Source: Candidatus Omnitrophota bacterium (lineage in GTDB: Bacteria; Omnitrophota; Gorgyraeia; Zapsychrales; Zapsychraceae). Taken from it: DNA of 64,000 bases. Positions 12,339-38,129 of the stretch are shown piece by piece; position 1 is the stretch's first letter; each line of letters opens with the position of its first letter. The notes under the pieces are model-generated. The model had not been told where the DNA came from. It worked only from the letters and a program-made list of their open reading frames with translations, and searched no databases. The position numbers and the translations under genes were made by a program. Where the stretch lies: positions 5,275 to 69,274 of the forward strand of contig JAJDCA010000068.1 in the NCBI GenBank assembly GCA_029261055.1, in the 5' to 3' direction.

Positions 12339-12346
12339 AATTCACC

Positions 12347-22500: not shown

Positions 22501-25500
22501 GCTTGATTTTGGTGGGGAAAGAATTTGGCTTCCCTCTGAGAAAATTTATTCTCCATTAATTTTCCATATATTTCACCTGTACGCGCATTCACAATTCCAA
22601 TATTATTAGATTTCCCAATGCCGAAGAAATGTTCATTATCCAAAAATACCGCCCCCAAGTTAAGCAGCGTTATTGAAAGATTTATCCAGGCAGGTGACGC
22701 AGGCATTATTCTTTCACCCGTCATAACATCCCACACGTGCAGCTTGCCTTCTTTATTCCTGGTCAACAAAGTTTTCCCATTGGGAGACAATTCCAGGTCA
22801 ACAATTTCCCCTGCGGCAGAAACAAGTATGGGAGGGGAATTTATCCCAGTATTAAGATCTCGTAAAATGACATTTTTTCCCTGAACAAACATTAAATATT
22901 TTGAACCTCTAGAGAATTTGGCGAAGGATACAGAATGTTCTTGCTGAATCTCTGATTTTGTGTCCATATTCCTAAAAGCCAACGTCCCAATTCCAATCTT
23001 ACCCTTTAGGCTCATAAACAACCACCGATTATTATCAGAAAGTTTACTGACCACCGAGATGCCGGCATTACCTAACGATAATAGATCTGATTCATCATCG
23101 ATTGCCCAATTCCATACGATCGTTTTCTTATCATTATGATCCTTTGTATTCTTTTCCATAATAATTCGTGAACCATCCTCTGAAAAAGAAAAATCATCAA
23201 ATTCACCTTCTTTACTTGTCGCCAACGGCTTACCCTTATCGATCTTGCGTACCTCCCATAATTCAATTTTCCTTTGTGATGGTTTATCCTTCCAAACCTC
23301 CTTGGCAACCTTAGTACCATCCGGCGAAAGATGGGCTGAATTTGTCACTAAAAGGTCAAAAGAATTTACTTCATCTCCCCCCTTCCTCACATCGCGCACA
23401 ATCCAATGATTTTTCCCATTCGCACGAACTATATTATCCTCCGTCAAAACCAGGCCACTTTGCGGCGAATAGTCGACAATGGTCTCACCCGGTGGGGCCG
23501 TGTACACATCCAACGCTTCCAAAACTATCTTGCCGCTACCGACTTTATTTTTCAAATCATTTGCGGCGGCAAGCTCCGCATTTTTTTTCTCCAGCGCCAA
23601 CTGCTCATCAAAAGATTGCTCCTGCTTCAGATACTTAGCCTTCTGCGCCGCCCATTTCTTTTTTTCCTTTTTAAAGGCTTCAATTTTGTCGGACAAATCA
23701 CTACCTGAAAAAGCTGATCCTCCTCCAACGTCTTTCGCAATCTCGTGGATGAGTACATGTTTTGTTTGGTCCCCTTCCTGCCATGTGGTGGCTTGTTCGA
23801 GATTATCAGGGGAAATATTTAAACCTTTAACTTGCATATTTTCTACATTTTTTAATTTACCTAAATCATTTATACGATGCACAGGTCCGTTCCCGCTTAT
23901 TACACCTAAGGCAGGTTTACCCTTATCTAAAACTCCTGCCGTCATAATTTGACCATCGGGTAAAAATTTTGATTCTTCGACCACCACTGAACTCAAGGGA
24001 TCCCATTTTCTAGCGTCTGGCTTCCATTCATACCTTGCCTTAAATCCTTTTGTTGCCACAATTAATTCCTTCTTATTAAAAGATAACTCTATATCCTGAA
24101 CAGCATCGCTTACCTGAAGCCCTTCTATTTTTAGAGCCCCTGTATGGGGACTTTTAATACTGACTCTTCCATCTTCCGAGCCTGTTAATATAAACTGGCC
24201 ATCCCTTGAAAATTTTGCAAAACTAACGCTATCCCCTTGAAGCATGAAGCCTTCCCCCGTCTCCATATTAAACAAATACAGAGCTTTCGACTTTGTCAAA
24301 ACAAGCGCCTTGCTCGAATCCGAATCGGGAGAAATGTCGATACTTTCGACTTCTCCCTCTAATTCTTCCCCGTTAACTTTAAATTCCTGCGTCTCCTTAC
24401 TCCGTCCATCCAAATACGCAATGCCTTTAAAATTTTCGGCGATCACTACCACTTTATTACTGTCTGAAGAATCTTCAAATTGCTCGATTTTTCCAAATTC
24501 ATATCGCACTCCACCCCTTGGCTCGCCCTCCAAATTTTCTCGAAAAACCCCATCAGGAGTTGCAAACAAGAATCTATTACCATCCTTAGATATCTTAGAT
24601 TTTTCCTCCTTACTTACCGTATCTTCTCGTAATGGATCTACACTCTCTTCTTGCTCAATATCGCGCACTCTCATTACCTTCGAATTAGGATCGTCAGCTT
24701 CCGCCTCAGTCAAAACAACCCTTCTCTTTACCGGCACATCCCCGTTACCATCCATCTCCCACGCCACCTGCATAATCTCTTCCCCATCCGGCGCAGTGTA
24801 CGTCTGAATCACCTTCATATCCTTCGCTGGCAGGACTTTAATGTCACCTTGTACAGTGTTCTTATCCTGCCCTGCTCCTGCCTCTGGATGTGCATCATCA
24901 ATAAGCCATTTATGGGAAACACGATCATAAACATTTTCGGAACTAATCTTTTCTCCCGTTTTTACATCAATAATTTCTCCATCTCGATGATGCTGCATCA
25001 AAACTTTTGTCCCACCAGGTGAAAGTTCAACATACGCTTTCGGCCATTCAAACACACGTAATTCTTTTCCACCTTTTACGTAACGCACATGCCATCGGTA
25101 ATGCTTTACCATTTTCGTATACGCATATTCTTTTTCTACTGTTAATACCCTCAACCCATCCTCTGAATATGAATGAACCTCCTCTGCGTCCTTAGGCTTA
25201 AAGGCGGGGGCACTGCTCATAAAATCAGCCACAGGCCAGACGTTTAACCCGCCTTTAACATGGGCTTTGACGTGGTGCTCTCCATCACGTGAAAATTCTA
25301 ATTCCGGCACCTCATCTTTCTCAAGCTTTTGTAAAGCATCCAATGCCGGCAGCTCTGTCCGCTCATTACCTTTTTTTTCTAAATCCTGCAACCAATATTT
25401 GCCCTCACCATCCACGACGGCTAAATAACGGCCATCATGAGAAAGGGCCACGGCTTTAACACCTTTTTTATGTTGCTTGGTTGCTTTTATTAATGCACCT

Positions 25501-28500
25501 TTTTCCGCATCCCATACACGCACTACCCCCATTTTACTAACTGTGGCTACCCTAGTGCTGTCCCGGGAAAAAACAGGCTCTAATGCGGCTTTAGTATTTT
25601 TTTCCAAATCAAGCACCCGCTTTTCTTTCTCAACATCCCACAACTTCGAAACCCCTCCATCTTTATCTAAAATAACCATCCTCTTATTATCCGGAGATAT
25701 TGTGGGTTGGACCTGAATTTTTAAACCTGTCTCTAACCCGAATCTGTACCCACTTTTAATATCCTTTACCCTCACCATGCCCTCTTCATCAGTCGCTATA
25801 ACCTTGGTTCCATCAGGAGAAATATCCGGATGCAACATTGGATCGTTAGGTAAACTCGATGATGTGGGGGATGTCGTGTCTATAGTATCAAATAGATCAT
25901 ATCTTCCACTATTCGTTGTCCTAAACACATGATTACCATCCGGCAAAAGTTTTGCAAAAGGATAATTACCTAAGTCAATACTTTCATCCTCACCTTTTAA
26001 GTCCCACCACACGAATTTTCCATTATCATCCTTTGTCAGTATTTTTGTTTCATCATCAGAAACACCTACCACTTTCGCATCAAATCTATGACCCCTATTC
26101 CATGTGACTAACTCAATATTTTTCATATCACGTATGCGCACGTTACGAGAAGCACTCGATGCGCCAATCTCCTTCTCCTGCGTCACCACCTTGCGGCCGT
26201 TCCAAAGAAACCCAATAACTTCCTCCCCTGGCAGTGGTTCATAATTTATAATCCCTTCCGTGTCCACCGCTCCTTGCTGCAATGCCTCTGCTTTCTGAGC
26301 CTCCACAGCCTTCGCCTCTTCTGCTTCTGCCGCTATTTCCTTAATCAACGCCTGTTTACCGTTAACCACCGCTATCAGTTTCTTTGTAAGAAGTTCCTCT
26401 TGTTTGTTTGGCCCCTGAACTTGAAGCTCGAGTTCTTTTATTTCTGCTTCTAATTCCTTTTCCCTTGTTCTATCTGGGAGAGCAACACCAGTTTCTAAAG
26501 TAATATCGCTTATATGTTGCTCTTTCACTAATTCCTTCTTAAGCCCTTCTATATTTCCAACCCCTTTTGACGGCTTACGAATTTTTATTAATTCTTTTTT
26601 CACTTCACTCTCAACCTTTTCGTAATCCTTCAGCGTTCTCTCGATATCTACAGGGCGGGATTGTTTTAATTCCTGTATCTTCTTCTCAACATGCTCAAAT
26701 ATATCTTTAAAAAGATCTTTGTGTGTTTTCCTGCTCAACAAAATTTGAACCTTTTCTAGAGGCTCAAGCTTATCTTTTTTCAAATCGGTGATCTTTTCAC
26801 GCAATTCCTTTTTTAGCTTACTAACAGCCTCCTCATCATTTTTCTGAAAATCTATCCACCAAATTAATTCTCCTATGGATAGCATGGAAAAATCTAACTC
26901 ATCCAATCCTTTCGTAAATTCAGGATCATAGGAATCTTCGATTTCCTTCATTGTTTGGTCAAAGAATGCGGCCGACCAATCGCGTTGAATACCCAAATTC
27001 TTAATAAGATCTTTCGTTGCATTCATTCTGTTCTTATTTCCCTCTTTATGTTGTTCCCATGTTTCGCCTTTACTTCGATAATTTAAAATAAAATCAATTT
27101 GATCCATAACCTTCTTCATCATAATCATTCGACTGCGTTGTTCCTCGAATTTCTTTAGTTCTTTCCATGATTTTTCGCTCAATAACTCTGCGATAATTTC
27201 ATTAAGATTTTCAATATTTTGCTCTGTTTGGCTTTCAAATGTATTGGTCCATAAGAGCTGGAGAATACGGTCTAATTCCGGATGACCTGTATCCGGCTCT
27301 TTGCCTTCTTCAATTTTCAAATTCTGAATAATGACACTTTCTTTATCAAGAAAATCAGAAATGGCATCAACGTCAGGATCATCACTAAACAATCCTTTTT
27401 CACCGGCCACATCTAAAATATTATTCTCGACCGGTGAAGTTTGATCAAAGTCACCCTCTATTTTAAAGGCCTTCATAAATTGTTCATGGATAATACGTTC
27501 TGAAATTTTTGTTTTGGCTCTCTTTTTAAAAGACTCACTCTTTTCTGTCCCTGTCTTTGCAATTTTTTGCAATCCATCAGCCCTCAAATAATTAAACCGA
27601 TCCACTAAAAACTTCACGTCTTTCACCAAAACACGCACACTGATTTCACGACGTTTAGGCAGAGTGGTACCGTCCAAAGATTGCCGATAATTTAACTCCT
27701 GCGCCATACCGATAATGCCGTCATATTTGACGCTTCCGTCAGGATAAGTTTCGTACTCTACATCGCTTACTTCTTGCTCCGACTTAGGAATCGGCATTCC
27801 GATAAGACGCGGATTAAGCCGCACCACTTCGCCGGTTGAATCTAGCTGTTTGGTTGAAACTTTACTTAAAAGTTTAAACATCAAGTGCGGCGGTAAAGGA
27901 TCAAATTGAATGGCAGGAAGACGTGCCAATAAATCTGCGGGAAGGCCCTTGATACCAGACGTAGAACCCGGGGTATTGCTTAAAGCAATCAATCCAAAAT
28001 TATCTGCCCCCTTACGCTTTTTATCCTTTTTCGTCGGATCAGGAGTCTCATCATATACAATCACATCATTCAAAGCACTAAGCACTTTATCTCTGGACTG
28101 CGCAATTTCTTCAACGATCAACACATTGCCTTCTCCATGCTCATCTTCCATAGCTAGCGGTAAGGCATTGATAGTTATCTTTGAATTACCACCCACCATC
28201 CCCTCCTGAAACGTAATCTGATCGAGCCGTGTTTGTGCTGTCATCTCAATCGTATGTTCTCCCGGTTTATTGCGCAGACGTACAATGGCCTTTGCTAACG
28301 TACTCTTTCCGCCCCCCGGGCCACCCACAAAATGAACTTTAATCTTCAATGCCTGCAATTGCAGCGTTAAATAAAGTTTCCCTACATTGGCTTTCAAATA
28401 CGTATTGACTTCATTTACATCCTTGGCCACATCAGCAAATTCAATCCAGTCAATAATCTCTTGCGGCAGGCCGGCATAATGAAAAGAAGCTTTAGAATGA

Positions 28501-31500
28501 ATAGGCAGCCTTATTTCATCCCAGAATTCTGTATTTTTTGGTGTAATAATGATTTCTTTGCCGGAAGGAGAAAGCTTAAAAGAATCTTTTGTTAATTCTA
28601 AATCCGGCACATTCAATTCATCCGGGCGCCAGGATGAAAAGTGCGTAATATTGCCGGCATACGTATCATTACTATCAATTTCCGCATGAAAATTAAAATA
28701 ATTTTTGATGGTGGTGAATGGACGGTACAACCAGTCTTTTTCATATTTAATTAAATGTTGAATCATAAAGGCCGTTAGCCGTGGATCCGGTGCACGTGTA
28801 AGCCGCTCCCCCTTAGAGTTGTCCGGACCATTTTCAAAAAGATCCCTGATCTTGGAGTCCCATCGCATTTGCGTGGCCAGATAACGTGGATCTAAAAGCT
28901 CCCAATCCTCAAAAATCGCGGCTTGTTGTTCGGGGCTGTATCCAAAAAAAGTCAAACGCAACTCATTGGAAATACGCACTAAATCCGTAATGTCTTGGGT
29001 AATTTTTTGTTCAAACTCCTCCCATCGATCATCATAGGTGCCTACATGTCTAGCAAATTTCAGGGCATCGGCCAATTGCCATTCAGCTTCTTCTTCGGTA
29101 GACTGCCAATGATATAAAATATTTTCATCCCGTTCCTGCATTGCCGTATTATTGGTGGTCCAATTTCCTGTAATGTTAGGCCACGGCGGATTTTCTGTGG
29201 TAATAATCCTGGACATCGGATGATCGCGCATCGTTTCAAATGTAACCATACCATCCCGCTCAACTTTCCACTCATGCGTCTTGGCGGGAATATGTGATTT
29301 GATGCCATCCCAAACACCCGGCTCATATTTATGTCGTTCATTCTCTATAATCCATCCCCCCACATGCTTCACATAATTTAATAAAGACGGTTTAAACCCG
29401 GTTGTCCCATTTTGCAAGGTCCGTGTCCCACGCGCAAGCCCTTCATCGGTTGCATCTTCATTACCGGTTTCTGAATACGTCGGCATATTAATTAACCGGG
29501 CTGCCGCAGACGGCATTTTGGTTTTGGCTAAACCCGGGCCTCCGGACAAAGTAACGGTCTGCCCTTCCCATGAGTCGGACATGCTATCCTGACTAACGGT
29601 TAAATCATACAACACCTGCCATGAACTTTTTTCCCGTTCAATAATCAAAACCCTTTTTTCCTGCCGGTTAAACGCCAAAATACGATTTGAATCTTGTTCA
29701 TAAAAATACCATTGCGTCAAATCCAAACCTTTCAAATCACCTAAACCTTGAAAATCACCATTCTCCTGACTGAGTAAAACCTTTTCTGAACTCTGTTCTA
29801 GTTTCACCTGTAACTTCTGAGTGTTTTCATACACCCCTTGATTTTCAACCATATGATCTGCGGAATCAAAAGCATGCAGGAATTTTAAATATCCATCCTC
29901 TTTATTTTCTTCCATCACCTCCAATTTTCCATCCTCAATACCATGAATAAAATATTTACCATCGGTGGAATAATCTGTGGGTGACCGTTGATCCGGCCGA
30001 TGTGTCGCCAAAAGAATATTAATTATTTTATCTTCATTAGCCTCTGTATCTTTAATCACTGTTGTCGGCACACCCATGCCACCCGGTCCCATTGGAAAAT
30101 ACAATGGATCCACACCTTCCCGTTGAAACATGAGCTTTTCTTGACCATTCACTTTTTTATTAAAAAAGTGACGATACTCTTCGGTTGTATTCAACTCTGA
30201 ATCTTCAACCACCATGGAAGCATCTTTTAATTGCAAATATTTTTGCCAATCACTGTCTGAAACAAACCCACTCTTTTCAATGGCCGTAAAAATGGCATCA
30301 CCCACTCTGGAAGGAAGCCCTGTGAAAGGAAACGGCTCAATCACCCGCTGCAACTGCCCCTTGGGTTGTTGATGCAACACTTTAGTATCCTCAACCTGCT
30401 TGGCCGTACCCATAGGGATAATAAACACATTAATGCCATGCTCTCTGGCCTTATTAATCAGCCCAAGAATTCTGGATTTTTGATTAGGATCAACATCTTC
30501 ATCCGTTAAAATAAATAAAATTTGCACGCCTTTTTTTTCGCTTCGCTCGGCCGCTGCAATCTGACTTGTAATATATTTCTCTAGATTATCGGCATAATGC
30601 GTGCCACCTCCTGCCTCCAAATTGGTCCACGCCCCATGCAATACCTTTTCTCGTTTAACATTGGGCTCTCGGATAGTCTCGCGTAATAATTGCAGATCTT
30701 TATCATCATCGGAAAAATAACCAACCTCATACCCAAGATCATCATCCACGATTACCTTGCGCATTTCATAATGTTGAAAAATAGAATCGGTCAAGACAAA
30801 GGATATGATACGTGCCATTTCAATCGGCAAATAATTGCTATTTTTTCTATCTTTCTCCCCCATGCTATAACTGCGATCAACCAATAAAGTAATATCCAAG
30901 GGTAATGGATCTTTTTTAATCGGATTATTATATCCCTGCGCACCCAGAAAAACATTAAGCGGCTGGGTCATAATCGCTCCATTGTCCAATAATTGACTTA
31001 ACTTAAAGCCGGTTGTTGCGATCAACAAGGCCTTAAACTGACGGGTTAGGCGCTTAACAAGCGTTCTAATCGTCACAACTGGTTTTCTTTTTAAAATATT
31101 TATAATGCTTAAAATTTTATTTAATGTTTTATTTTTATCGTCATATTCTGAAAATTTCTCTCTAAATTCTTTTTCATTAAAATTTTTACTAATTTGATGA
31201 TTCTCAAGAAATCCTTCTATTTCCATTTTCTCAATTAATTCTTCCCCATCAATATCCAAATCTCGAAAATGCTCCACTTGAAGAGTTCTGCCTTCGGATA
31301 TTTGCTTTTTATACCATGTTTGTAATTCGCGATGCTGCGTCTTATCCAACCCGCTTGTGGCTTCAATCTGTGCTTCTTCACGCAACTTGGCTGCCTTTAA
31401 ATCAAATTCTTTAGGTTTAATCGGTTTAATATCTGATGGCGGCAATGCTTCTTGTTTCTTTCCAGTCTCTCCTAAAGGTTTTACATCAGGCAGATTAATG

Positions 31501-34500
31501 GTATCGGGCATTTTTTGATAATTCTTTGACCTATCTTTTGCACCCTTTTGGGTTTCTCCTGCTTTAGCCGGTTCACTTTTGCTGCCTGAAGACTTATTCA
31601 TATCTTGAGATGCCTGTGAAGAAGATGTTTCCTGCTTGCCTTGCCCATCTTCTCCTCCTTTGTTATTTTTATTATCCTCGCCTTTCTTATTTTCTTTCTT
31701 CCCTGGCTCGCCTTTATCTTTTGATCCACTTAACGATTGTTGAATACCTTGAATAGATTTTTCTAATTGATGAAGGTTACGTAATACATCCCTATTGGCT
31801 CCTTGGGTTTGATCTACGCCTTTGTTAACATTATTTAAGGCCTTATTTAATTTTTCTGTTTCATCTGTAATTTGAGGCACATCCGGGGAAGGGGCATGCG
31901 TTTGCTTGACTAAGTTATCGGCAATGTGCTTAAGTTTGTTGGCCTTATCTTTCAAATTCTGTAACTTCTCTAATTGTTCCTGTGATTTTTTATCTACCCC
32001 GTTAGATAACTTTTTAGCCTCATTAGCTAACTCTGGAGAAGGCAAACCTTGTTGTATTTGAGAAACTTTTTCATTTTGCGCACTTCCCTCCCCCGCGGCC
32101 AAACGCCCTTTATTTAAAAGGTCTTGGGATTTGTCCTGAATGCCTTTTGCCTGCTGTTGAATTTCTTTTGATAATTTCTTTGAAGTATTTTTATCAGACT
32201 CACTCATTTTTCCCGGAGTAACATCCCCAGATTTCTTTTTAATATCGTCTAATTTTTTAGCAATAGTATTCGTGTTACTTGCTATAGCGTTTAATTGTTG
32301 TTCAAAATCCTTAAGCGCATTTTCAATATCATCCGTACTTTTAGGGGTAGCACCGGGTGATACCTGCCCTTGGCCCGAACCTTGAGATGAACCCTGACCT
32401 GACGATGCGGCAGATGTCTTTTGTGATGAGCCGCTACCCCCACCGGGTTGTGATAAATTTTCAAAACTCTTTTTTCCTTGTTCCATATCTTCACGAACGG
32501 CATCTTCAATGACTTTCTGAATTTCTTGCGGTAGGTTTTTACCATACTCATCAAGTTCTTTACGCTCTTCTTCTGTCAACTCTTCATAGACTTTACGAAC
32601 GATCTCTTTGGCTATTTCTTTAATCCCTTGCTTCAACTGTTCCTCTCGTCTATCTTGCTCTTCTTTCTTTTTGCGTTCATGTAGTCGTCGACGTTTCTTC
32701 TCCTTAAAAGCCTCTGCATACAATTCCAAATAAACCGGCCCGACCTTCTCATTGATAATCCTGATAATGTCCCCTTGTTTAAGTGATTCCGGTCTGTACA
32801 TCAGCTTAATCCACCCATCATCATTTACATCCTTCCCCATACTACGAACCAGCGCATCTTCCACCTGAGGATTTTTATTACGTGGATCTTTCATATTGCC
32901 TTGTTGATTTTCTTTGTAATGATATCGCAGATAAAGAAGGGAATCTAAATAACGTAAATGTAAATCGTAGGTGTTGTATTGTGCCTCCTCAATCAAAGGA
33001 TTGCCGATGTCATAACGATCCTGAAGAATCCGGCTCATCCATTTCCTGGAACCATCAAACTTTTGTTCAAAAGCTCTATGTTTAATATTCTCTGCATTCA
33101 CATCATGCCCAATGCCAGAAACCTTCGGAAAAAGAAGGGTATCCCACATCAGCAATGCATCGGGATGTTTTTTGATATCTTCATTCAAATCATCAATCAA
33201 ACCGCGTAAACCAAATTTAACACGGGAAATAGCAAGAAAGACCTGCCCCAGAGTACGGTCGCGTGCAGCCTGAAGCTTACCCTTTAAATCGTCTTTATTC
33301 TCTCCGTCATACGTTCGTGGATAACGATCTGTTTTTACATAATGCATTTGTCCCACCGAGGAATCCAACGACTTATACGTCCAAAAACCATAGGGGGCCG
33401 GTATAAATTCAACTTCCTGTTTGGCGGCTAAACGCTTGGCATATTCTTGCCATTCCTGATCGATTTTCTCTAACTCGCTAGCTAATTGAGGATTATCTTT
33501 TGTTGGATCCCCATAACGTTCATACAACACATCAAGAAAATCTTTAAACAAACGTAGGGGGTTGACGTCTTTTTGATTTTCCGACATACCCATCATAATC
33601 CCGCCCACCAAAAATCCCATCGCACGCTTTCTGGTGTATTCATCATTCAGTGCATCCTTTCGTAACCCTTTTGCTTCATAGACTTTTTCTACTTCCATCT
33701 CCAAATAATCCATCACAAAATAACCAGCCCGACGGTCTGATGTTCCAGGATGAATCATAAACCCGGTTTGTCCACTCAATCCCATTTCCTTACCTCGCTG
33801 ATACAACTCGCTAACCGCGGGTTCACCGAATTTATCAACGTCATGCGGAAGTTTTTCTTCCCCTTCTTTTAAATTCTTCCCCGCGTGCTGCACATATTCC
33901 ATCACGGATATCGCAAAGGTGATTTGCTCCCATTCAGGTGGCATTTTCAAAATTTTGTGCCCTATTTCATGAGGCAAGACAAGCCGCATCATCAGTTCAT
34001 CTTCAATTGGGCTTATGAGCACATTTCCCGTGTCCGGCGCGAATGCCCCTTTGGATTGACCAAAAGCTACGGGCATCTGCACAATAGCCGCCGCAATTTT
34101 CTTACGGCCTTCCAGATCTTTAAAACTTTCTCTCCAAAAATGCTCCGGAAGATAACTGTCAAAATTGTAGGGTTTAATGGTTTCATCTAACATTTTCATA
34201 ATTGCTTTTTCTTCAGCTGGATTATCAGATAATGCACTGGCCATTTCTTTTTGAATAGTATCAATGTGTTGTTGCGTTTTAAAAAGATGCTCCTTCTGCC
34301 CCACTCGCCGAAGCTCTTCCTTTAATACATTCATATCAAGGCCAACACCCTTTCCAGGAATATGCATTCCTACTAGCAAAGGATCGGCTATTTTACGATC
34401 AATCACATCCTCTTTAATCAAACGAAGCAAATTATCATCCGACATTTTCTTTACCGCCTGACTTAAAGGTTCCACAACTCCAATCCTGCGTTCTTGAGCC

Positions 34501-35855
34501 GCTTCAAATGCTTCGAGATTATTCTGATCTAACGCCATTAACATCTCTTGTTTTAAGGCATAATATCCCACGATCGATTCTTCCGGTGTTTTTACCTGCT
34601 CTAACATAGCATCGTCCGTTTTCACAATATCCCGTTCGAAATTCTTCAAGACACTTTCCGCTCTCACAAGACCTCGTTCATTGATCGCCTGATAATTGAC
34701 GGCCACCATGGCCTGATCTTCGAAACTTAATTGAGCAAAGTTAGTGATTTTTTGATACGCTTGATCAATCTGGTTTTCAAATTCAAACCCACCGGCAAAG
34801 TATTTGCGGGGAATAATGGTTTCGGTGGCGGCATCGTATTCTTCGCGGATGTAGTCGTAGACGCCTTTTTGGAAGGCTTCGAGGTATTGTTGGTAGATTT
34901 TTTCTTTGTTGATGTCTTCGGACTTGTCGACGCCGGCGGTCTTGCTTTGATTGACATACGCCTGTCCTAATAGTCCGTCTTTGAGTGTTCGTTTGTACCA
35001 CGTGGCGAGAATCATGGCATGGACGATTTGGCGGAGAGGCGCGAAGTGCTGACCTTCGTTAACTTCGCGTTCGATTTCGGGGAGAAGGATTTCACGGATA
35101 ATGGATGTGGTAATATTTGAATTCGTAGGGGCATGATTTATCATGCCCTTGTCTTGGGTTTGATGAATCAAACCCCTACGATCCGCGCCTTCCCTAAACA
35201 AATAATCCTCTTCCAACATCACCTTCAACCGCGACTCCACCACCCACGCGGTGCTTCCTTCTTCGTAAACAATCGCCTTCTCCGGTACGATCCAAACCTT
35301 GTTAAAGGTATTCACCGGGATATCGGTGACACCGTACTCTTCGTACGCCTTTTGATAAATTCGTTCCCAGAATTCTTCCCCCAGATCATCTTCCGGATAC
35401 ATGAGGGTGGATGTCAGTTGTTTGAGCAGATAATCCTGCGCCAGTAAATCCATACCCATTTGTGTTTGCGCTAAATCATCGGCAATAATACGGTCTTTTT
35501 CGTAAGGAGATAAATTGACCCAAAGGTGATCATCGGGAATAGTGAGGGCGGCCAGGAAATATTTGAGCAATTTGCCATATTCTTCTGTCTGGGCTTTCTT
35601 CGCAAGCACATCTTCGCCCTGATCTATCAGAAAATCCATCTGTAACGGATTCTGCAGATCCAGCTCAACCCCCATCAAAAGAGGCGGTGCATAGGCAGAC
35701 GGGCTTAAAGGCACCATCGCCCCAGGCACAGGCATGGCCGGTAATATTTGTGCAAGTCCGCTTAGAGGCATCGTCATAGTAAATATAATGACCATACCTA
35801 CAACTACACAGCGAAACGGCACACCGAATCGTTTTTTATGAATTATTCTTAACAT
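13425..35855 (-). CDS. Giant multidomain protein (~7,480 aa). Order: N-terminal signal/TM segment, HExxH motif, coiled-coil/low-complexity region, vWA domain, P-loop AAA ATPase, then three large mosaic modules of WD40/PD40-like beta-propeller repeats with coiled-coil linkers, then a hydrophobic C-terminal peptide
   Basis: Single uninterrupted 22.4-kb ORF. The ORF begins at a TTG (35873); the first ATG (35855) is preceded by an AGGA RBS. Motifs were read from the translation: HEIGH (aa 635-639), DRSYSMG...ILFILTDED (vWA MIDAS), GGPGGGKST + VLIVEE (Walker A/B), and many (I/F/L)SPDG/FSRDG/FSKDG repeats. Confidence 0.85.
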   Translation of the reverse strand: MLRIIHKKRFGVPFRCVVVGMVIIFTMTMPLSGLAQILPAMPVPGAMVPLSPSAYAPPLLMGVELDLQNPLQMDFLIDQGEDVLAKKAQTEEYGKLLKYFLAALTIPDDHLWVNLSPYEKDRIIADDLAQTQMGMDLLAQDYLLKQLTSTLMYPEDDLGEEFWERIYQKAYEEYGVTDIPVNTFNKVWIVPEKAIVYEEGSTAWVVESRLKVMLEEDYLFREGADRRGLIHQTQDKGMINHAPTNSNITTSIIREILLPEIEREVNEGQHFAPLRQIVHAMILATWYKRTLKDGLLGQAYVNQSKTAGVDKSEDINKEKIYQQYLEAFQKGVYDYIREEYDAATETIIPRKYFAGGFEFENQIDQAYQKITNFAQLSFEDQAMVAVNYQAINERGLVRAESVLKNFERDIVKTDDAMLEQVKTPEESIVGYYALKQEMLMALDQNNLEAFEAAQERRIGVVEPLSQAVKKMSDDNLLRLIKEDVIDRKIADPLLVGMHIPGKGVGLDMNVLKEELRRVGQKEHLFKTQQHIDTIQKEMASALSDNPAEEKAIMKMLDETIKPYNFDSYLPEHFWRESFKDLEGRKKIAAAIVQMPVAFGQSKGAFAPDTGNVLISPIEDELMMRLVLPHEIGHKILKMPPEWEQITFAISVMEYVQHAGKNLKEGEEKLPHDVDKFGEPAVSELYQRGKEMGLSGQTGFMIHPGTSDRRAGYFVMDYLEMEVEKVYEAKGLRKDALNDEYTRKRAMGFLVGGIMMGMSENQKDVNPLRLFKDFLDVLYERYGDPTKDNPQLASELEKIDQEWQEYAKRLAAKQEVEFIPAPYGFWTYKSLDSSVGQMHYVKTDRYPRTYDGENKDDLKGKLQAARDRTLGQVFLAISRVKFGLRGLIDDLNEDIKKHPDALLMWDTLLFPKVSGIGHDVNAENIKHRAFEQKFDGSRKWMSRILQDRYDIGNPLIEEAQYNTYDLHLRYLDSLLYLRYHYKENQQGNMKDPRNKNPQVEDALVRSMGKDVNDDGWIKLMYRPESLKQGDIIRIINEKVGPVYLELYAEAFKEKKRRRLHERKKKEEQDRREEQLKQGIKEIAKEIVRKVYEELTEEERKELDEYGKNLPQEIQKVIEDAVREDMEQGKKSFENLSQPGGGSGSSQKTSAASSGQGSSQGSGQGQVSPGATPKSTDDIENALKDFEQQLNAIASNTNTIAKKLDDIKKKSGDVTPGKMSESDKNTSKKLSKEIQQQAKGIQDKSQDLLNKGRLAAGEGSAQNEKVSQIQQGLPSPELANEAKKLSNGVDKKSQEQLEKLQNLKDKANKLKHIADNLVKQTHAPSPDVPQITDETEKLNKALNNVNKGVDQTQGANRDVLRNLHQLEKSIQGIQQSLSGSKDKGEPGKKENKKGEDNKNNKGGEDGQGKQETSSSQASQDMNKSSGSKSEPAKAGETQKGAKDRSKNYQKMPDTINLPDVKPLGETGKKQEALPPSDIKPIKPKEFDLKAAKLREEAQIEATSGLDKTQHRELQTWYKKQISEGRTLQVEHFRDLDIDGEELIEKMEIEGFLENHQISKNFNEKEFREKFSEYDDKNKTLNKILSIINILKRKPVVTIRTLVKRLTRQFKALLIATTGFKLSQLLDNGAIMTQPLNVFLGAQGYNNPIKKDPLPLDITLLVDRSYSMGEKDRKNSNYLPIEMARIISFVLTDSIFQHYEMRKVIVDDDLGYEVGYFSDDDKDLQLLRETIREPNVKREKVLHGAWTNLEAGGGTHYADNLEKYITSQIAAAERSEKKGVQILFILTDEDVDPNQKSRILGLINKAREHGINVFIIPMGTAKQVEDTKVLHQQPKGQLQRVIEPFPFTGLPSRVGDAIFTAIEKSGFVSDSDWQKYLQLKDASMVVEDSELNTTEEYRHFFNKKVNGQEKLMFQREGVDPLYFPMGPGGMGVPTTVIKDTEANEDKIINILLATHRPDQRSPTDYSTDGKYFIHGIEDGKLEVMEENKEDGYLKFLHAFDSADHMVENQGVYENTQKLQVKLEQSSEKVLLSQENGDFQGLGDLKGLDLTQWYFYEQDSNRILAFNRQEKRVLIIEREKSSWQVLYDLTVSQDSMSDSWEGQTVTLSGGPGLAKTKMPSAAARLINMPTYSETGNEDATDEGLARGTRTLQNGTTGFKPSLLNYVKHVGGWIIENERHKYEPGVWDGIKSHIPAKTHEWKVERDGMVTFETMRDHPMSRIITTENPPWPNITGNWTTNNTAMQERDENILYHWQSTEEEAEWQLADALKFARHVGTYDDRWEEFEQKITQDITDLVRISNELRLTFFGYSPEQQAAIFEDWELLDPRYLATQMRWDSKIRDLFENGPDNSKGERLTRAPDPRLTAFMIQHLIKYEKDWLYRPFTTIKNYFNFHAEIDSNDTYAGNITHFSSWRPDELNVPDLELTKDSFKLSPSGKEIIITPKNTEFWDEIRLPIHSKASFHYAGLPQEIIDWIEFADVAKDVNEVNTYLKANVGKLYLTLQLQALKIKVHFVGGPGGGKSTLAKAIVRLRNKPGEHTIEMTAQTRLDQITFQEGMVGGNSKITINALPLAMEDEHGEGNVLIVEEIAQSRDKVLSALNDVIVYDETPDPTKKDKKRKGADNFGLIALSNTPGSTSGIKGLPADLLARLPAIQFDPLPPHLMFKLLSKVSTKQLDSTGEVVRLNPRLIGMPIPKSEQEVSDVEYETYPDGSVKYDGIIGMAQELNYRQSLDGTTLPKRREISVRVLVKDVKFLVDRFNYLRADGLQKIAKTGTEKSESFKKRAKTKISERIIHEQFMKAFKIEGDFDQTSPVENNILDVAGEKGLFSDDPDVDAISDFLDKESVIIQNLKIEEGKEPDTGHPELDRILQLLWTNTFESQTEQNIENLNEIIAELLSEKSWKELKKFEEQRSRMIMMKKVMDQIDFILNYRSKGETWEQHKEGNKNRMNATKDLIKNLGIQRDWSAAFFDQTMKEIEDSYDPEFTKGLDELDFSMLSIGELIWWIDFQKNDEEAVSKLKKELREKITDLKKDKLEPLEKVQILLSRKTHKDLFKDIFEHVEKKIQELKQSRPVDIERTLKDYEKVESEVKKELIKIRKPSKGVGNIEGLKKELVKEQHISDITLETGVALPDRTREKELEAEIKELELQVQGPNKQEELLTKKLIAVVNGKQALIKEIAAEAEEAKAVEAQKAEALQQGAVDTEGIINYEPLPGEEVIGFLWNGRKVVTQEKEIGASSASRNVRIRDMKNIELVTWNRGHRFDAKVVGVSDDETKILTKDDNGKFVWWDLKGEDESIDLGNYPFAKLLPDGNHVFRTTNSGRYDLFDTIDTTSPTSSSLPNDPMLHPDISPDGTKVIATDEEGMVRVKDIKSGYRFGLETGLKIQVQPTISPDNKRMVILDKDGGVSKLWDVEKEKRVLDLEKNTKAALEPVFSRDSTRVATVSKMGVVRVWDAEKGALIKATKQHKKGVKAVALSHDGRYLAVVDGEGKYWLQDLEKKGNERTELPALDALQKLEKDEVPELEFSRDGEHHVKAHVKGGLNVWPVADFMSSAPAFKPKDAEEVHSYSEDGLRVLTVEKEYAYTKMVKHYRWHVRYVKGGKELRVFEWPKAYVELSPGGTKVLMQHHRDGEIIDVKTGEKISSENVYDRVSHKWLIDDAHPEAGAGQDKNTVQGDIKVLPAKDMKVIQTYTAPDGEEIMQVAWEMDGNGDVPVKRRVVLTEAEADDPNSKVMRVRDIEQEESVDPLREDTVSKEEKSKISKDGNRFLFATPDGVFRENLEGEPRGGVRYEFGKIEQFEDSSDSNKVVVIAENFKGIAYLDGRSKETQEFKVNGEELEGEVESIDISPDSDSSKALVLTKSKALYLFNMETGEGFMLQGDSVSFAKFSRDGQFILTGSEDGRVSIKSPHTGALKIEGLQVSDAVQDIELSFNKKELIVATKGFKARYEWKPDARKWDPLSSVVVEESKFLPDGQIMTAGVLDKGKPALGVISGNGPVHRINDLGKLKNVENMQVKGLNISPDNLEQATTWQEGDQTKHVLIHEIAKDVGGGSAFSGSDLSDKIEAFKKEKKKWAAQKAKYLKQEQSFDEQLALEKKNAELAAANDLKNKVGSGKIVLEALDVYTAPPGETIVDYSPQSGLVLTEDNIVRANGKNHWIVRDVRKGGDEVNSFDLLVTNSAHLSPDGTKVAKEVWKDKPSQRKIELWEVRKIDKGKPLATSKEGEFDDFSFSEDGSRIIMEKNTKDHNDKKTIVWNWAIDDESDLLSLGNAGISVVSKLSDNNRWLFMSLKGKIGIGTLAFRNMDTKSEIQQEHSVSFAKFSRGSKYLMFVQGKNVILRDLNTGINSPPILVSAAGEIVDLELSPNGKTLLTRNKEGKLHVWDVMTGERIMPASPAWINLSITLLNLGAVFLDNEHFFGIGKSNNIGIVNARTGEIYGKLMENKFSQREAKFFPHQNQAVIFNEDRTQLQPFVVRGGGGEVLNSGKKDAAMLSIRDLIGRIAMGQGKKSAVKDLKDQFFKQINKLKEDKLSSLEKVPPLLRNETYKDLFKDMLEHVEKKIQELKQPLSGVIDMTEDDYDGELAADRVELEKVDVMLGQRISGVSNDQEQLRNIIKEKEALIAKQEEKIKKLKEAIKAEEIKDASGNGLTLQNLKNSIKHEIELKEIFEGEINQLRDFLKKQVSSGMQKHERKHLEARRALLTERIDSRVQGKQALVNKKKVAQAKAELEPENAQTTQGSKDEILPVEKIKENIESWGISENESVVEFVELNYSGFWYVVTREDIENNGEKKVVWRVWGEMRNFEGQAMIEGTPKVEETLGQYDGFTLSKEGILMMATSEGVSYKYVNKEEDDWIKINKNLDLVRGIELKKVKKGILVMSKNFQGVVSLNGGKDIPLKDMQGNMKSIEISKDGKLAAFVMFDYNVYLINIENGERIYRSQYSNINFAKFSLDDEVVLIGKIGGGISFRDSHTGEETKDVFNLPGNDSIEYLERSLDKNKLIVKAKFGKITVWKKDAISGEWTLDENYSLENAIRAKFLPDSKHIMFFRDAPEGNATAGLYLTDGLRTYKMDAPLNSDLEILELADIQLIHGQLAQMEIYNHDGRGKYVTIRNIMSKNDTSDVSKVKVLPADQMKVKESYTAPEGEVIVQHAWVEDDTGPEPVTRRVVLTLNKLQVWKVRDIARKNENDENLLRPVMSTGTLQFSKDGKKLFDAEKNGKLFVSSSLIQDDWKEIRKNLGRIHKVEDALDGNKVVIIADNFQGIVHLDGQDEKEFKDALGEEPFAKGGLKVLNVKISSDSQYAAVLTNHDNSYKFDMNTGSHLQYHANVVFSKFTEDGQVSLRGTNNGFVLFEDAKTVDFEDVKTEEKFKSINAGNEPVQDLDVVWDGKIMHKVNVKMDGRWKLWKWDENIKDWIPEENYLHGNQKILPDGKTVMVGENILSGSKRTMPTIGTYEGKSDVGFVDYPFEEEYKKDKDEKREIIQDDIVFSPDNLEQAETYTENGEIKHVFIRQIAESTDDDAPPSDNNLPAQIKALEEEEKQRRLMEIELNARAKGIDAELVKIQKKVDREAPKESAEEETQGDANTLAKIKELEALKVQAAEQNEQDQPDGTPKLSPINPAYEAPPGETIVDYWPESERALTWKEIELADLNTQDIIKAYEWRVRDTKDNKELFPKFDTLEKNVVRLSPDGTKIALKSGSTTNHKVDVWSVEDDTKRTFVNSTEVTGFISSLSFSSDGKEIVIGSRKGPIGSQTEKSIVTTWHWEKSGSPKFSQISQEGKIRYKQLSSDNKTLLTLDESNTQRVWNMEAEIGIELTDFRREGIALARLSSDGNNVISIKKSKSDDGYPVWIRNINGAEPSRFGIWEEAKFTDLSPDEDTLLIIDENGKLVLRDAQTGEKIKQDSKAWEEFKHMVNKFGYFLPDNEHFLSIGSHTPSATTLIIMRNFKTGEVANWSYIKFNPEEIQFYPDRLQVMVRNKEGSKQQVFSVGKIESLNPNDLDQPVKIPEGKDKNFKKMLSLSKQLVQAIKERIGNVKVRAVVGNKPALVEELDQEKEEIDKKITNLEAGLRKLRGVQRRTRADYKKGVSEVDPELEKANKMLGIDESEEDVVDSNISNKDWLRKRILELEGLIAEQQRNVENFETKLAKIATSASLSEIERLEKLREGSRDTKRVFELERKKLEEELRKQDSAMLQKYEREYWEARKDFLTKKKESLVEGERALSKQEESEAAVQAEVDAQKAEGLQKGAIDRRMPVNYTPPEGEEVIAYLWKGRKVVTQEFIAGKPSAGNPNIMDKDTWKVHIRDVESNGELVLLDRLLYSKVRWIEISDDETKMLAGHDFGVMLWNFNDIESSIDLGADNPSQARFSSDSNQVIITYFSQAIEVYDITKKWSDSKLVPVNPILYPDIGAYESKKIVATDMEGGVSVWDVIIEQTVDKIKISLLQLAKLETGLKIEVQPRISPNNKWIVILDKDGGVSKLWDVNNERPLKELEKNTSANVGPVYSLDSTRVATVSKKDGIVRWWYAQTGDFKGEADPFEDGVKALALSSDGIYLAVVDGKGKYWLENMDTKQRIELPAPDALKNVDKDVVPKLEFSTEGPLRVMAHMKSGLTVWPVAKFMSTGQPRAVKVLAAKDMTVIQPYTAPDNEEIVQVAWLMDGSKKGAPPVKRRIVLTREDRQGKPPHWRVRDTAKGADEELLSFPAGVENVVVKLSGDGRILWIGGESSMQWVDVLPDDVGSRPLFTNAIQINPEKSFIVDAPDGEKSVIIADNFQGIVPVDESKEIKEFKVNGKRLEEKVESIDINSDSTKVVLLTEKGKQYLFDMTTGKGKFLSGNASFTRFTKDGEFILTGMESGFVNFHDKDGNVIDNKGFDSGNREVKNLELSQDGKMIIVTTSFNRTVWEDKVGDNDWKKIDILETADGQVAKFLPNSHHIINAGVRVGFIKGDGRGVEEVSNSVHTLIDNSFKKNTKIKAYDLEFSPDRLEAAEMYKDENGKVKYAHIRQIAEPLDGGDDVVDNDRPVKIEALKKETAQWMEIEDEWNQREKEIDGLLAQEKAAFEAKASNQKDAPNTQAGTLKIKELETKIKSKIKERDGYTLTVGELAVVTKKAMANKDIHDWTAELAALKAQGADPIELDKQLEVSKGVDDEISDLSKQWVQAMEERIEKRKTRVAAKDDLTESVKLDQEIATLDQAIATLSEDLRKRREASDSKVVDKENYNTQNQKTSVIDQETAETIVSIKVLKTIKDMVTGKTLDGGTVSIDTRSSMRTLILDSSIGVLKGQLPKDTIMDENIDEQIKILRTMLTDDSKLDKLLESKALKEVGASSVEKDARIAAVQKVLKSLEEKQRIMAEIEGIKKVLQENKDYFKAMPDDGSIKSKDARMEANSSIVDYEATLSRLEEKLKNVDNAMLNQKTKASLGGINLDPQGMDMQIQGQGLELNLDPAMLQQQMRDIQTGNFPGLVPVILNITPAQLPPALLQLTLSKK
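14844..26846. repeat. Three large degenerate tandem modules inside the giant ORF (about 22344-26846, 17784-22346, 14844-17786)
   Basis: Recurrent protein blocks include KDLFKD(I/M)(F/L)EHVEKKIQELKQ, Y(T/E)(A/P)P.GE..., FQGIV.LDG... and (I/F)SPDNLEQA.... Near-identical DNA stretches occur at 26661-26720 vs 22182-22244 and at 25632-25736 vs 16440-16544. Confidence 0.8.
27954..28406 (-). other. AAA+ ATPase domain within the giant protein (Walker A GGPGGGKST at 28299-28325)
   Basis: VHFVGGPGGGKSTLAKAIV ... GNVLIVEEIAQ (Walker B-like). Confidence 0.7.
30384..30896 (-). other. von Willebrand factor A (vWA) domain within the giant protein (MIDAS DxSxS at 30867-30881)
   Basis: LLVDRSYSMGEKD ... ILFILTDEDVDPNQKSRILGLINKAREHGINVFIIPMGT. 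Confidence 0.7.
33957..33971 (-). other. HExxH (HEIGH) zinc-metallopeptidase-like motif in the N-terminal region of the giant protein
   Basis: RC of gtgccctatttcatg gives HEIGH in the context RLVLPHEIGHKIL. Confidence 0.4.
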
Positions 35856-35988
35856 ATTGGTCCTATTTAGCAAATAAAGAAGGATATGTTAAGTGTGCCA
35901 TATTTTTCAGCGCAATGCCAAAAAATGTTTTGGGTAGGATTTTAGAAAGGGAAAAAAAGTGATAGCCACTTTTTTTGTCACTATTTCT

Positions 35989-37209
35989 TTATAAAGCAAG
36001 CCATGGAACGGCATAAATATTTGTCGCAATCGGAAACACTTTTGTTCCTGAATACACAATGATACCTTTTTGTGCTTCCGGGTGGAGTTTTAAGAATTTG
36101 CGCATAGATTTAGTATCCTTAAAAGTAACTTGAGATGATGATTTCACTTCTATTCCCATAATCTTTGTTCCGGAACGGATTACAAAATCAACTTCACTCT
36201 CCCCTTGCCTTGGTTTCCAATAGTAAATTTCAGGCTCAACAGACATCGTGGACACCCATGAGTTGATCTGTTGAAAGATATAATTTTCAAAATACCGCCC
36301 CTTTAAATTTTTATTCTTTAATTCTTTCTCTGATACAATTCCGGCCAAAAAACACGCAGCTCCCGAGTCAAACCAAAAATATTTAGCTTGTTTATAGGCA
36401 CGTTCATTTTTGGTTGTATAACCTCTTAACTCATGCAATAAAGCCGTATCCTGTAATAAACTCATATACCGGCTGACATTTGTACGTGTTTCTGAACATA
36501 ATTTAGATAATTCATTCTGAACGCTTTCCCATCCCGTGGCCTGAGCCAAAGCTTCCATCAGACGGCGAAAATTCTGAGGATGTCTTATTTTCACTAAATC
36601 TTGAATATCCCGGTGGATATAAGTATCAATGTAGCTGCTCCCTCTCTCCCAAGCGACTTTGTCGCTTGAAGCCAACACAACTCCAGGCAAACCTCCCCGC
36701 CAAACAATTGTTGTTAAATTATTAGATGCTTTTACGGATTTTGGTTTAATTTCTTTACCTGCCCAAGCCTGCTCTAGAATTCCTTCGTGTGACAACCCAT
36801 GCAATTCCCTATGACTCAAGCCCGTTAAGTGCAGATATTTGGCTCTGCCCGCTAAAGTTTCCCTTGGGCGTTGGCGTAGTGAAATATTTCCAGATCCAGA
36901 TAAGATAAAACGTCGTCTCCGCTTACTTTTATCAACGAAATACTTAACCGTTAATAATAATTCCGAACATCTTTGGACCTCATCAATAATCGTCGGTTTG
37001 TCTTCCCAAAGAAGTCCTTTAGGGTCTTCTTGAGCCTGTTCCAATACTTCTGGATCATCTAAAGTTAAATATCGCCAGTTTTTTAAAAACCGAGCGTTTT
37101 CCAAAAGAGTACTTTTGCCCACCTGTCGTGGTCCTGTCAAAATGACCACGGGGTGAACCTCAAAAGACGCCTCTATTCTTTGTTCCATCCACCGTTTTAT
37201 ATATTTCAT
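35989..37209 (-). CDS. AAA-family ATPase with a C-terminal DUF4143 domain
   Basis: VVILTGPRQVGKSTLLEN (Walker A) is typical of the AAA/DUF4143 ATP-binding protein family. Likely start MKYIKRW. Confidence 0.7.
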   Translation of the reverse strand: MKYIKRWMEQRIEASFEVHPVVILTGPRQVGKSTLLENARFLKNWRYLTLDDPEVLEQAQEDPKGLLWEDKPTIIDEVQRCSELLLTVKYFVDKSKRRRRFILSGSGNISLRQRPRETLAGRAKYLHLTGLSHRELHGLSHEGILEQAWAGKEIKPKSVKASNNLTTIVWRGGLPGVVLASSDKVAWERGSSYIDTYIHRDIQDLVKIRHPQNFRRLMEALAQATGWESVQNELSKLCSETRTNVSRYMSLLQDTALLHELRGYTTKNERAYKQAKYFWFDSGAACFLAGIVSEKELKNKNLKGRYFENYIFQQINSWVSTMSVEPEIYYWKPRQGESEVDFVIRSGTKIMGIEVKSSSQVTFKDTKSMRKFLKLHPEAQKGIIVYSGTKVFPIATNIYAVPWLAL

Positions 37210-37320
37210 GGCTATTCTCCTTCTGCCAATAAGCATACCACTCAATTATGCACAGATCAACATATATTTGTGCACAAATATACATAATATTTTGCACATA
37301 TTTACATGGTTCAAGAAAAA

Positions 37321-37385
37321 TAGTGACAGGGGTAATTGGGCGAGGTAATGTGGAGGATGACTGGGACAAGGCCGGGGAAACTACA
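37321..37385. repeat. R5: diverged (~75-80% identical) copy of the giant-gene 3' repeat core, immediately 3' of vapC
   Basis: caggggtaattgggcgaggtaatgtggaggatgactgggacaaggccggggaaactacattacagg aligned against 13455-13520. Confidence 0.7.
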
Positions 37386-37796
37386 TTACAGGATTTTTAT
37401 CCCTATTTTCCGACATACGGCATTTAATTTTTTATCGAAAGATGCCATATCTAAATTTTTCCTTAAGGCGAGCTCTATATAAGAAGCATCATAAACTGTT
37501 ATTTTATGCTCTCGACTGATAGCTAAAATATCTTTTGTAATGTTATCGTAACTATTATTTTCCACAAAAAGCGACAAATCTTTTAAACTACTAATAAAAG
37601 AAACAGAATCTGCTTCCTTTATGCGTCCATTTTTCTCTGCAATAAATAACGCATTCGACAATTCATATGGCCATAATGAAGGGACATAGGCATTTTGCTT
37701 AAGAAGCTTGTTCAATAACTCTTGAGATTTTTTAGTGTTTTCGTCTTTAAACACCCAACTTAAAATGACGGAATTATCTACGACAAAATCTTTCAA
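37386..37796 (-). CDS. vapC: PIN-domain toxin (VapC-like)
   Basis: 136 aa: an N-terminal D (VVDNSVIL), a D in VYDASYIELAL, and PIN-like overall size and architecture. Confidence 0.65.
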   Translation of the reverse strand: MKDFVVDNSVILSWVFKDENTKKSQELLNKLLKQNAYVPSLWPYELSNALFIAEKNGRIKEADSVSFISSLKDLSLFVENNSYDNITKDILAISREHKITVYDASYIELALRKNLDMASFDKKLNAVCRKIGIKIL

Positions 37797-38032
37797 TACC
37801 GCCTCCCTTTTTTAATAAGTTTCTGAATTTCCTTTTGAGGCAGCTTATATTTTTGGCGTATTTCTAGAATCCGTGCTATCGCCTCTTCGGCTTTCTTTTG
37901 ATTATTTTCTGGGGGCAATATTCTTGCAACTGGTTTTCCATTTTTTGTAATTAAATACGTTTCTCCGCTAAATGCCTTTTGAACGATTTCTGCAAAATGT
38001 GTTTTTGCTTCGAAAGAGCCTATCTCAACCAT
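37793..38032 (-). CDS. Phd/YefM-type antitoxin
   Basis: MVEIGSFEAKTHFAEIVQKAFSGETYLITKNGKPVARILP matches the Phd/YefM N-terminal pattern. 4-nt overlap with vapC. Confidence 0.6.
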   Translation of the reverse strand: MVEIGSFEAKTHFAEIVQKAFSGETYLITKNGKPVARILPPENNQKKAEEAIARILEIRQKYKLPQKEIQKLIKKGRRY

Positions 38033-38129
38033 AATACCCTCCTTTAAACTAGTCTGTTTAACTAGTTTAAGTTTAACACAAAAAAAACTATCTGGCAAGG
38101 TTCTAAGAAATCCTTACGTATTATCTATT

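Follow-up and report, generated by a model that had tools for sequence, protein, structure and literature searches.

Integrase-less tandem accretion at the 3' ends of genes is known from the cis-mobilizable elements at fda of Streptococcus thermophilus and from island arrays at tRNA and tmRNA genes. A 64,000-nucleotide stretch of DNA from a Candidatus Omnitrophota bacterium (assembly GCA_029261055.1, contig JAJDCA010000068.1, positions 5,275 to 69,274 of the forward strand; here called the window) holds an arrangement that resembles these systems in several respects. It contains a giant gene whose 3' end, R1, recurs in four further copies, R2 to R5, each behind a small toxin-antitoxin (TA) or TA-like gene pair, and it is the decayed fifth copy, R5, located behind a vapC-like gene, that is considered here. 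As in the described cases direct repeats of the target-gene end bracket inserts (here three of them), the gene is intact, partial ends pile up downstream and a single orientation is kept. Unlike them, the inserts are only 520-650 bp long and hold a TA pair only, no integrase is found among the scanned open reading frames (ORFs) of the 64 kb, the limits of homology vary from insert to insert, and R5 lies upstream of the gene and lacks a partner. The locus may be described as a set of displaced gene-end copies that would stem from serial insertion, the inserts being TA mini-cassettes without an integrase and the target the end of a giant Omnitrophota gene.

Four other systems invite comparison. 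Chromosomal integrons, for which TA cargo is typical, and clusters of attC sites lacking integrases (CALIN) also consist of small cassettes in one orientation, frequently TA pairs, with a related repeat behind each, but the repeat described here has no hairpin, is protein-coding and is 5'-truncated to varying length, with neither intI nor attI nearby. The pdif (XerC/D-site) modules of Acinetobacter plasmids are likewise small, recombinase-less and often TA-bearing and are moved by a host function in trans, whereas the present repeats are all direct and show no 11-6-11 Xer-type site, no alternating orientation and no dyad symmetry. In Rhs/CdiA orphan cassette arrays a very large gene is followed, as here, by partial copies of a conserved segment interleaved with small gene pairs. 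There, however, a variable toxin domain follows the repeated piece in frame. At the present locus the repeated piece is the very 3' end of the gene and runs into a stop after 17-35 codons, and the small genes form separate operons and do not qualify as orphan modules. Campbell-type single-crossover insertion and homology-facilitated illegitimate recombination, finally, insert foreign DNA by way of a short homologous anchor. They share with this locus the duplication of a carried homologous segment and one junction without a motif, and differ from it in that at least four events would have fallen here on one kind of anchor, with TA cargo each time. To our knowledge neither natural transformation nor circular forms have been described for this organism.

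The fifth repeat copy behind vapC

37309..37389, minus strand: R5, decayed fifth repeat copy (pseudo 3' end of a gene with the C-terminal module described below); nhmmer E value 5e-18, best block 37329-37379

R5 is a real fifth member of the giant-gene 3'-end repeat family, confirmed by several comparisons. An earlier note on this DNA, made from the letters alone, had placed a copy just 3' of vapC at 37321-37385, and this is borne out on the minus strand. Local alignment of 37250-37420 with R1 gives a score of 62, with 44 of 52 columns identical and one gap, against a mean of 17.3 (standard deviation 2.5, maximum 31; z 17.8) in 500 dinucleotide-preserving shuffles, so that the comparison with shuffled sequence which the note had proposed as its own check comes out well above the controls. 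The corresponding z is 16.8 against R2, and 3.3 and 1.9 against R3 and R4, which are both shorter. With blastn-short R5 and R1 match over 32 nt at 90.6%. An nhmmer profile of the copies run over the 64 kb finds exactly five sites, all on the minus strand, with R5 at 37389-37309, and the next match after these has an E value of 0.14. The repeat search groups 37329-37384 with 13461-13516, 12805-12860 and 12046-12101 at 77% ungapped identity to the reference copy, and a 27-mer, TTCCCCGGCCTYGTCCCWGTCATCCTC, matches 37353-37379, 13485-13511 and 12829-12855 where none is expected in the window. The 75-80% identity first stated for about 65 nt holds over the broad ungapped span; within the core it is 85-91%.

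Because the R5 segment is short and skewed in composition, a chance or convergent resemblance among C-rich sequences might be considered. It is excluded by the shuffles, by the 27-mer and by the profile E value, and is also countered by the fact that the match keeps the reading frame of a protein motif; its probability is negligible. Translated in that frame R5 reads FPGLVPVILHITSPNYP, the counterpart in the giant protein being FPGLVPVILNITPAQLP. The frame is also that of vapC, which R5 continues straight after the TAA stop. Nor is the region a local assembly artefact, since an independent Logan assembly (SRR15505515) is 100% identical over 35214-42039 of the window (6.8 kb).

The vapC stop codon occupies 37386-37388 and R5 follows it directly, with clear similarity from 37379, that is within 7 nt of the stop. 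R5 retains the 5' part and the core of the repeat but has lost the 3' tail and the stop codon and carries two indels. The intact central core of R1-R4, ACATCACCCCCGCCCAACTCCCCCC, is not found in it; the R5 core, ACATTA-CCTCGCCCAATTACCCC, departs from it by a deletion, an insertion and several substitutions. The 3' tail (GCTTTGCTT...stop) is unrecognisable, and three 22-bp units stand in its place. The downstream flank motif TGGYATNCT, expected within about 45 nt of the tail, is present as TGGTATGCT, but some 70 nt further on.

Copies R1 to R4 and the protein module they encode

All genes in this region lie on the minus strand. They read in the order pgk, tpiA, secG (38130-38507), phd, vapC, R5, the ATPase gene and the giant gene with R1, and beyond the giant gene cassette A, R2, cassette B, R3, cassette C, R4 and purB with the remaining purine operon.

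13425..35873, minus strand: giant gene, 7482 amino acids (aa), with the family N-domain, AAA_5, many WD40 propellers and the C-terminal module encoded by R1
13383..13530, minus strand: R1, last 103 nt and stop codon of the giant gene (13425-13530) plus a flank of about 45 nt ending TGGCATCCT
12872..13388, minus strand: cassette A, DUF4160 and DUF2442 pair (Pfam E values 4e-17 and 5e-15)
12727..12874, minus strand: R2, near-full copy that begins at the stop codon of the cassette A DUF2442 gene
12096..12673, minus strand: cassette B, a second, dissimilar DUF4160 and DUF2442 pair (Pfam E values 2e-20 and 5e-19)
11968..12081, minus strand: R3, lacking the 5' third, 15 nt past the stop of the second DUF2442 gene
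11457..11961, minus strand: cassette C, HicB-like (UPF0150; Pfam E value 3e-27) and 76-aa HicA-like genes
11398..11451, minus strand: R4, the shortest copy, after the HicA-like gene, with purB next

R1 and R2 are 93% identical over 105 nt and R1 and R3 97% over 68 nt. The 114 nt common to R2 and R3, 91% identical, reach 44 nt beyond the stop codon despite the different cassettes that follow. R4 matches R1 over 40 nt at 95% and then runs into an in-frame tail of its own, ...ALLEFIR (ITPAQLPPALLEFIR), closed by a stop. The open frame of R2 (12769-12924) ends, before its stop, in a full module tail, ...GNFPGLVSVILNITPAQLPPALLQLTLLKK. A 14-nt block, ATCACCCCCGCCCA, is invariant in R1-R4. Counted in R1 coordinates the copies start 103 (R2), 84 (R5), 69 (R3) and 56 (R4) nt before the stop, and in each of the four the start follows a two-gene module of TA or TA-like kind, 0-15 nt after its stop codon. 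The earlier note's statement that the copy at vapC follows a TA module as R2-R4 do is therefore accurate, the orientation and the distance of a few nucleotides being the same. These four cassette-repeat junctions fall at four different positions and have no motif in common. On both sides of cassettes A, B and C lie imperfect direct repeats, which measure 105, 114 and 40 nt respectively and whose limits are staggered. TGGYATNCT follows each copy, and five of its eight matches in the window lie at repeat units, the overall expectation being 3.05 matches.

Two details of cassette C may be added. Its 76-aa HicA-like ORF has no Pfam match, the name resting on position and size only. A 14-mer, AAAAATGGTATTCT, occurs at 11463-11476, 11975-11988 and 12734-12747, that is after R2 and R3 and also inside the 3' end of the HicA-like gene; its position just before R4 puts a fragment of post-stop flank on the "wrong" side of R4.

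The differences between the copies are mostly synonymous. R1 and R2 are separated by five synonymous changes (with TAA>TAG counted) and three non-synonymous ones, R1 and R3 by three and one, and in the first 12 codons three of the four changes between R1 and R5 are synonymous at third positions. R2 and R4 have kept in-frame stop codons. The prevalence of synonymous differences points to functional gene ends as the source and indicates that distinct alleles of the gene end, all functional, gave rise to the copies, as opposed to a single local duplicate that decayed neutrally.

What the repeat encodes can be told from the relatives of the giant protein, whose first 408 residues have 1339 homologues, nearly all in Candidatus Omnitrophota. 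A complete family member starts with a signal peptide, followed by a conserved N-domain of about 400 aa; after a middle part that varies greatly comes a C-terminal module with the pattern GGIDLN...GFVPVIINIxPxxNxPLLLG, or in general form GGIxL...G(F/L)VPVIxNIxP.... The giant protein has both hallmarks, the N-domain after a signal peptide and a C-terminal VPVIxNIxP module, and as its end, LGGINLDPQG...GNFPGLVPVILNITPAQLPPALLQLTLSKK, aligns with the C-terminal modules of other members, the repeat is by this alignment the DNA for the second half of a C-terminal module common to the family. When the last 88 aa are used in an exhaustive HMMER search, 104 representative proteins, 66-3551 aa long, match at 36-60% identity and carry the module at their very C-terminus; a word-indexed protein search with the same 88 aa gave no matches, and Pfam has no model for either the N-domain or the C-module. 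The label "giant-gene 3' repeat" used at first holds in so far as the repeat matches the gene end, but it needs refining, as the sequence encodes a module found throughout the family. What is new is that these comparisons show the repeat to be coding sequence of a conserved C-terminal module that together with the N-domain brackets variable cargo in more than 1000 Omnitrophota proteins. In a limited literature check, published accounts of Omnitrophota giant genes described neither this N-domain/C-module family nor gene-end repeats.

Between the N-domain of about 400 aa and the C-module of about 65 aa family members carry cargo of about 100 to over 7000 aa, in the giant protein AAA_5 and many WD40 propellers. 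GC content at third codon positions (GC3) is 0.5-0.87 at both conserved ends of the giant gene (13425-13700 and 34800-35740) and 0.13-0.4 in the 21-kb middle, with a gene mean of 0.38.

The last 30 codons of the giant gene are its GC3 maximum. The raised GC3 at both ends would fit frequent recombination or conversion of shared ends, or else a different origin. As the module is common to a large Omnitrophota family, R5 could descend from the end of another allele or of another family gene.

The repeat also stands out in composition, with 35-45% C and 11-13% G on the sense strand, and on the minus strand of the whole window the five 60-nt segments with the strongest C-over-G skew are precisely these copies. 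C-rich, G-poor, unstructured RNA has the textbook properties of a rut site, and the copies may have been retained as Rho loading sites that end each TA transcript. This would account for their retention and not for their origin, and is compatible with the other explanations. Besides the skew, the folding z of 0.07 to 1.15, which marks the copies as unstructured, and the failure to find intrinsic terminators between the cassettes speak for such a role. Against it, the composition follows from the codons of a Pro/Leu/Thr-rich motif, and in another family gene this motif is not written in C-rich codons, so that the skew is no family-wide nucleotide constraint. On balance a role in Rho loading is quite improbable, and the same low probability attaches to its application to R5, which would then shield an iteron-controlled ATPase promoter from vapBC read-through.

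Origin of the copies

The preferred reading, to which about an even chance is given, is that R5 is a non-coding, decaying leftover of a gene end (its last 80 nt or so) and an insertion scar like R2-R4. According to this scheme a small TA cassette would arrive joined to a piece of homologous gene end, and the carried piece would recombine with the resident gene end and its flank of about 45 nt, thereby duplicating the shared 40-114 nt. The gene would retain an intact end, and a partial end would be left directly behind the last cassette gene. The staggered bracketing of cassettes A-C is the outcome expected from insertion via a carried homologous segment. The cassette-repeat joint would be an illegitimate junction, made once per cassette. 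Because no recombinase, dyad symmetry or fixed junction is visible, a homology-driven route is favoured, in which a small circle might have entered by a Campbell-type single crossover, or linear DNA by homology-facilitated illegitimate recombination.

R5 would represent an older event, as suggested by its 85% identity, its two indels, its lost tail and its detachment from any gene. That it now lies ahead of the giant gene, with vapC on one side and the ATPase gene on the other, would mean that the source gene end was lost or that the block was rearranged. For this extra step one may think of a gene end that disappeared, a block received from a donor whose array was longer, or an island that became circularly permuted. 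Both the route of recombination and this history of location are what we infer from the arrangement. The earlier note's view that R5 links the TA material on both sides of the giant gene to one repeat family is sound, given the similarity, strand and position. From the family, the orientation and the position after a TA stop codon that R5 shares with R2-R4 it is also reasonable to infer a common type of event on both sides. The note went further and proposed the same recombination mechanism; the same three features favour this, but R5 has no tail, carries two indels and lacks a partner copy, and as regards mechanism the proposal is only plausible.

If the preferred reading is true, a giant gene for a surface protein, in a phylum that is uncultured and host-dependent, would have captured TA cassettes repeatedly at its 3' end, each leaving a datable scar, and a simple, possibly recombinase-free route to integron-like cassette arrays would be at hand. 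It would also provide a handle on the gathering of accessory and defence genes around giant genes, and on the question whether long genes are stabilised against deletion by addiction modules. R5 alone is a modest scar and a small supporting detail in this picture.

Several observations weigh against it. No partner copy or repeat flank is found upstream of phd in the window, so that phd-vapC has the right-hand copy only, the bracketing seen in cassettes A-C is absent, and an additional loss or rearrangement is needed. The 14-nt invariant block of R1-R4 and the 44 nt past the stop common to R2 and R3 would fit an att-like site equally well. The counts of synonymous changes are small numbers. No donor, circular form or cassette-less strain was seen in collections that do not contain the source genome. 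TA pairs adjoin family genes without gene-end repeats at two other loci (L009 and L014), and gene-end repeats were found at none of six other family loci (L008, L009, L014, L016/L017, L018/L019 and L020), where the contig of L014 ends before the 3' flank of its family gene. The array would accordingly be no general property of the family, within this small sample. At L009 a 101-aa ORF and HicA (8030-8569) lie directly downstream of the family gene, and at L014 a nucleotidyltransferase (MNT) and HepT pair (3841-4495) directly upstream of a family gene of more than 2252 aa, in both cases with no gene-end repeats.

The observations on the invariant block and the post-stop flank belong to a rival explanation, in which the copies are att-type sites of a site-specific recombinase encoded in trans, integrase-less TA mini-cassettes were inserted serially at the 3' end of the gene, and R5 is an inactivated site. 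It draws on the gene-3'-end direct repeats that bracket each insert (A-C) and leave the gene intact, on the single orientation of all copies, on the block itself and on the 114 nt that R2 and R3 have in common in spite of different cassettes. However, neither a recombinase nor intI was found in the 29 ORFs scanned with Pfam (20 flanking ORFs of at least 109 aa together with the islet and cassette genes, ORFs at 57276-63999 being left out). Inverted-repeat arms are missing from the repeat core, and when the copies are folded as single-stranded DNA none does better than shuffled sequence on either strand (z -0.3 to +1.5). Moreover, the left limit of homology differs in every copy with no junction motif, and the R5 core is broken by an indel and substitutions. 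An att-type origin is on these grounds unlikely, though far from negligible.

The integron attC or CALIN reading fares much worse and is very improbable. In its favour are the cassette size of 520-650 bp, the uniform orientation of the array and the match of GCCCAAC in the core to RYYYAAC. Yet there is no hairpin, no boundary pair and no intI among the scanned ORFs, and the repeat codes for a conserved protein module; GCCCAAC occurs once as the RYYYAAC half, and no GTTRRRY half follows downstream on the same strand, GTTGAAG of R2 ending in G and R1 and R3 having GTCGAAG. Two further candidates were rejected. A G-quadruplex (G4) hotspot on the G-rich strand would rest on a marginal two-tetrad G4 in R1 and R2 only, none being seen in R3-R5, and is not conserved. 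For an RNA or tRNA target the window gives 0 Rfam gathering matches and 0 tRNA or tmRNA genes.

R5 might on the other hand be unrelated to the array. A separate family gene would once have stood between secG and the ATPase gene, nearly all of it would have been deleted or overwritten on the arrival of phd-vapC, and R5 would be what was left in place. The module is common to many family genes, R5 looks like an independent allele (with CTT as in R2 and CCC as in R1) and is without a partner copy, and TA pairs stand beside family genes elsewhere without repeats. Such a deletion must, however, have ended within 7 nt of the vapC stop, in the same geometry as R2-R4, and there is no other trace of a family gene, be it N-domain or the rest of the C-module, between secG and vapC. 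A separate gene at this place is improbable.

The preferred insertion reading can also be extended to a more speculative one, in which the coding end of the C-module with its promoter-like flank of about 45 nt is the docking site of an integrase-less, integron-like capture system that loads TA and defence cassettes beside giant Omnitrophota genes. This is a long shot. Its boldest version, to which no greater chance is given, would make the 26.7-kb phd-to-R4 block (38098-11391) one circularly permuted mobile island, with phd-vapC-R5 the next cassette after R4. Should it be true, TA pairs on both flanks would protect a costly 22-kb gene from deletion. A search for island-boundary repeats between the secG-phd and R4-purB junctions gave only an 8-mer, TAGTTAAA, which is not significant (E value 0.47).

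Comparisons with databases and relatives yield little. The core pattern of the repeat has 0 matches in GTDB species genomes, a collection without the source genome, and six in JGI metagenomes, all of them chance matches in GC-rich unrelated DNA; viral contigs have 0 matches for two repeat patterns. Exact look-ups of the second DUF2442 protein and of the HicA-like protein turned up no record. The nearest relatives, with PurB 86-87% identical, keep the order purB-purC-purSL-LOG-purQ-purM-purD-purE, but have a different gene upstream of purB, where the giant gene and the cassettes are absent, and lack the HEPN/MNT pair between purQ and purM. The giant gene, the cassettes and the HEPN/MNT pair are thus lineage-specific additions. 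This pair, a HEPN and nucleotidyltransferase toxin-antitoxin at 3774-4495 between purM and purQ within the purine operon, has no adjacent repeat copy and is missing from two relatives that share the operon order (L010 and L012).

The phd-vapC and ATPase islet

37793..38098, minus strand: Phd/YefM-type antitoxin gene (Pfam PhdYeFM_antitox E value 8e-10; gene call in Logan contig L001)
37386..37796, minus strand: vapC-like PIN toxin gene (Pfam PIN E value 5e-11; 136-aa gene call in Logan contig L001)
37232..37307, minus strand: R5-ATPase spacer, three 22-bp tandem units with a TGTGCA core, then TGGTATGCT at 37232-37240
35989..37245, minus strand: AAA_14-DUF4143 ATPase gene (Pfam DUF4143 E value 2e-32, AAA_14 E value 4e-25; PADLOC PDC-S01 E value 2.6e-101)

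The three islet genes that had been recognised from the letters (an AAA-DUF4143 ATPase, Phd and VapC) are upheld by Pfam. The antitoxin gene phd, with a likely start at 38032 and 79 aa in the Logan contig L001 call, lies upstream of the PIN-domain gene and overlaps it by 4 nt. With both Pfam matches above the cut-offs, the gene order, the overlap and the domains identify phd-vapC as a predicted type II toxin-antitoxin system of the VapBC kind. The GC content of vapC (0.31) and phd (0.35) is lower than that of secG (0.43), tpiA (0.42) and the ATPase gene (0.40). The low GC of the pair fits a separate acquisition. Describing the region as a putative accessory islet suits this composition and the gene content (a TA pair and a PDC-S01 candidate).

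The ATPase gene is called in Logan contig L001 with 415 aa and a start at 37236. It matches the PADLOC PDC-S01 profile over its full length, residues 11-418 falling on profile positions 6-417 of 422, and is a candidate defence gene of the PDC-S01 family; a proven defence system is not claimed. Its C-terminal part is also matched weakly by NERD and by CARF-associated PD-(D/E)XK nuclease profiles. The TGGTATGCT motif lies about 22 nt ahead of the likely ATPase start codon, and the 22-bp units, at 37245-37307, extend as far as the promoter region of the gene. With their TGTGCA core they look like an operator or iteron array that would control the PDC-S01-like ATPase gene, and within them, at 37263-37282, lies a perfect 20-bp palindrome, TATATTTGTGCACAAATATA.

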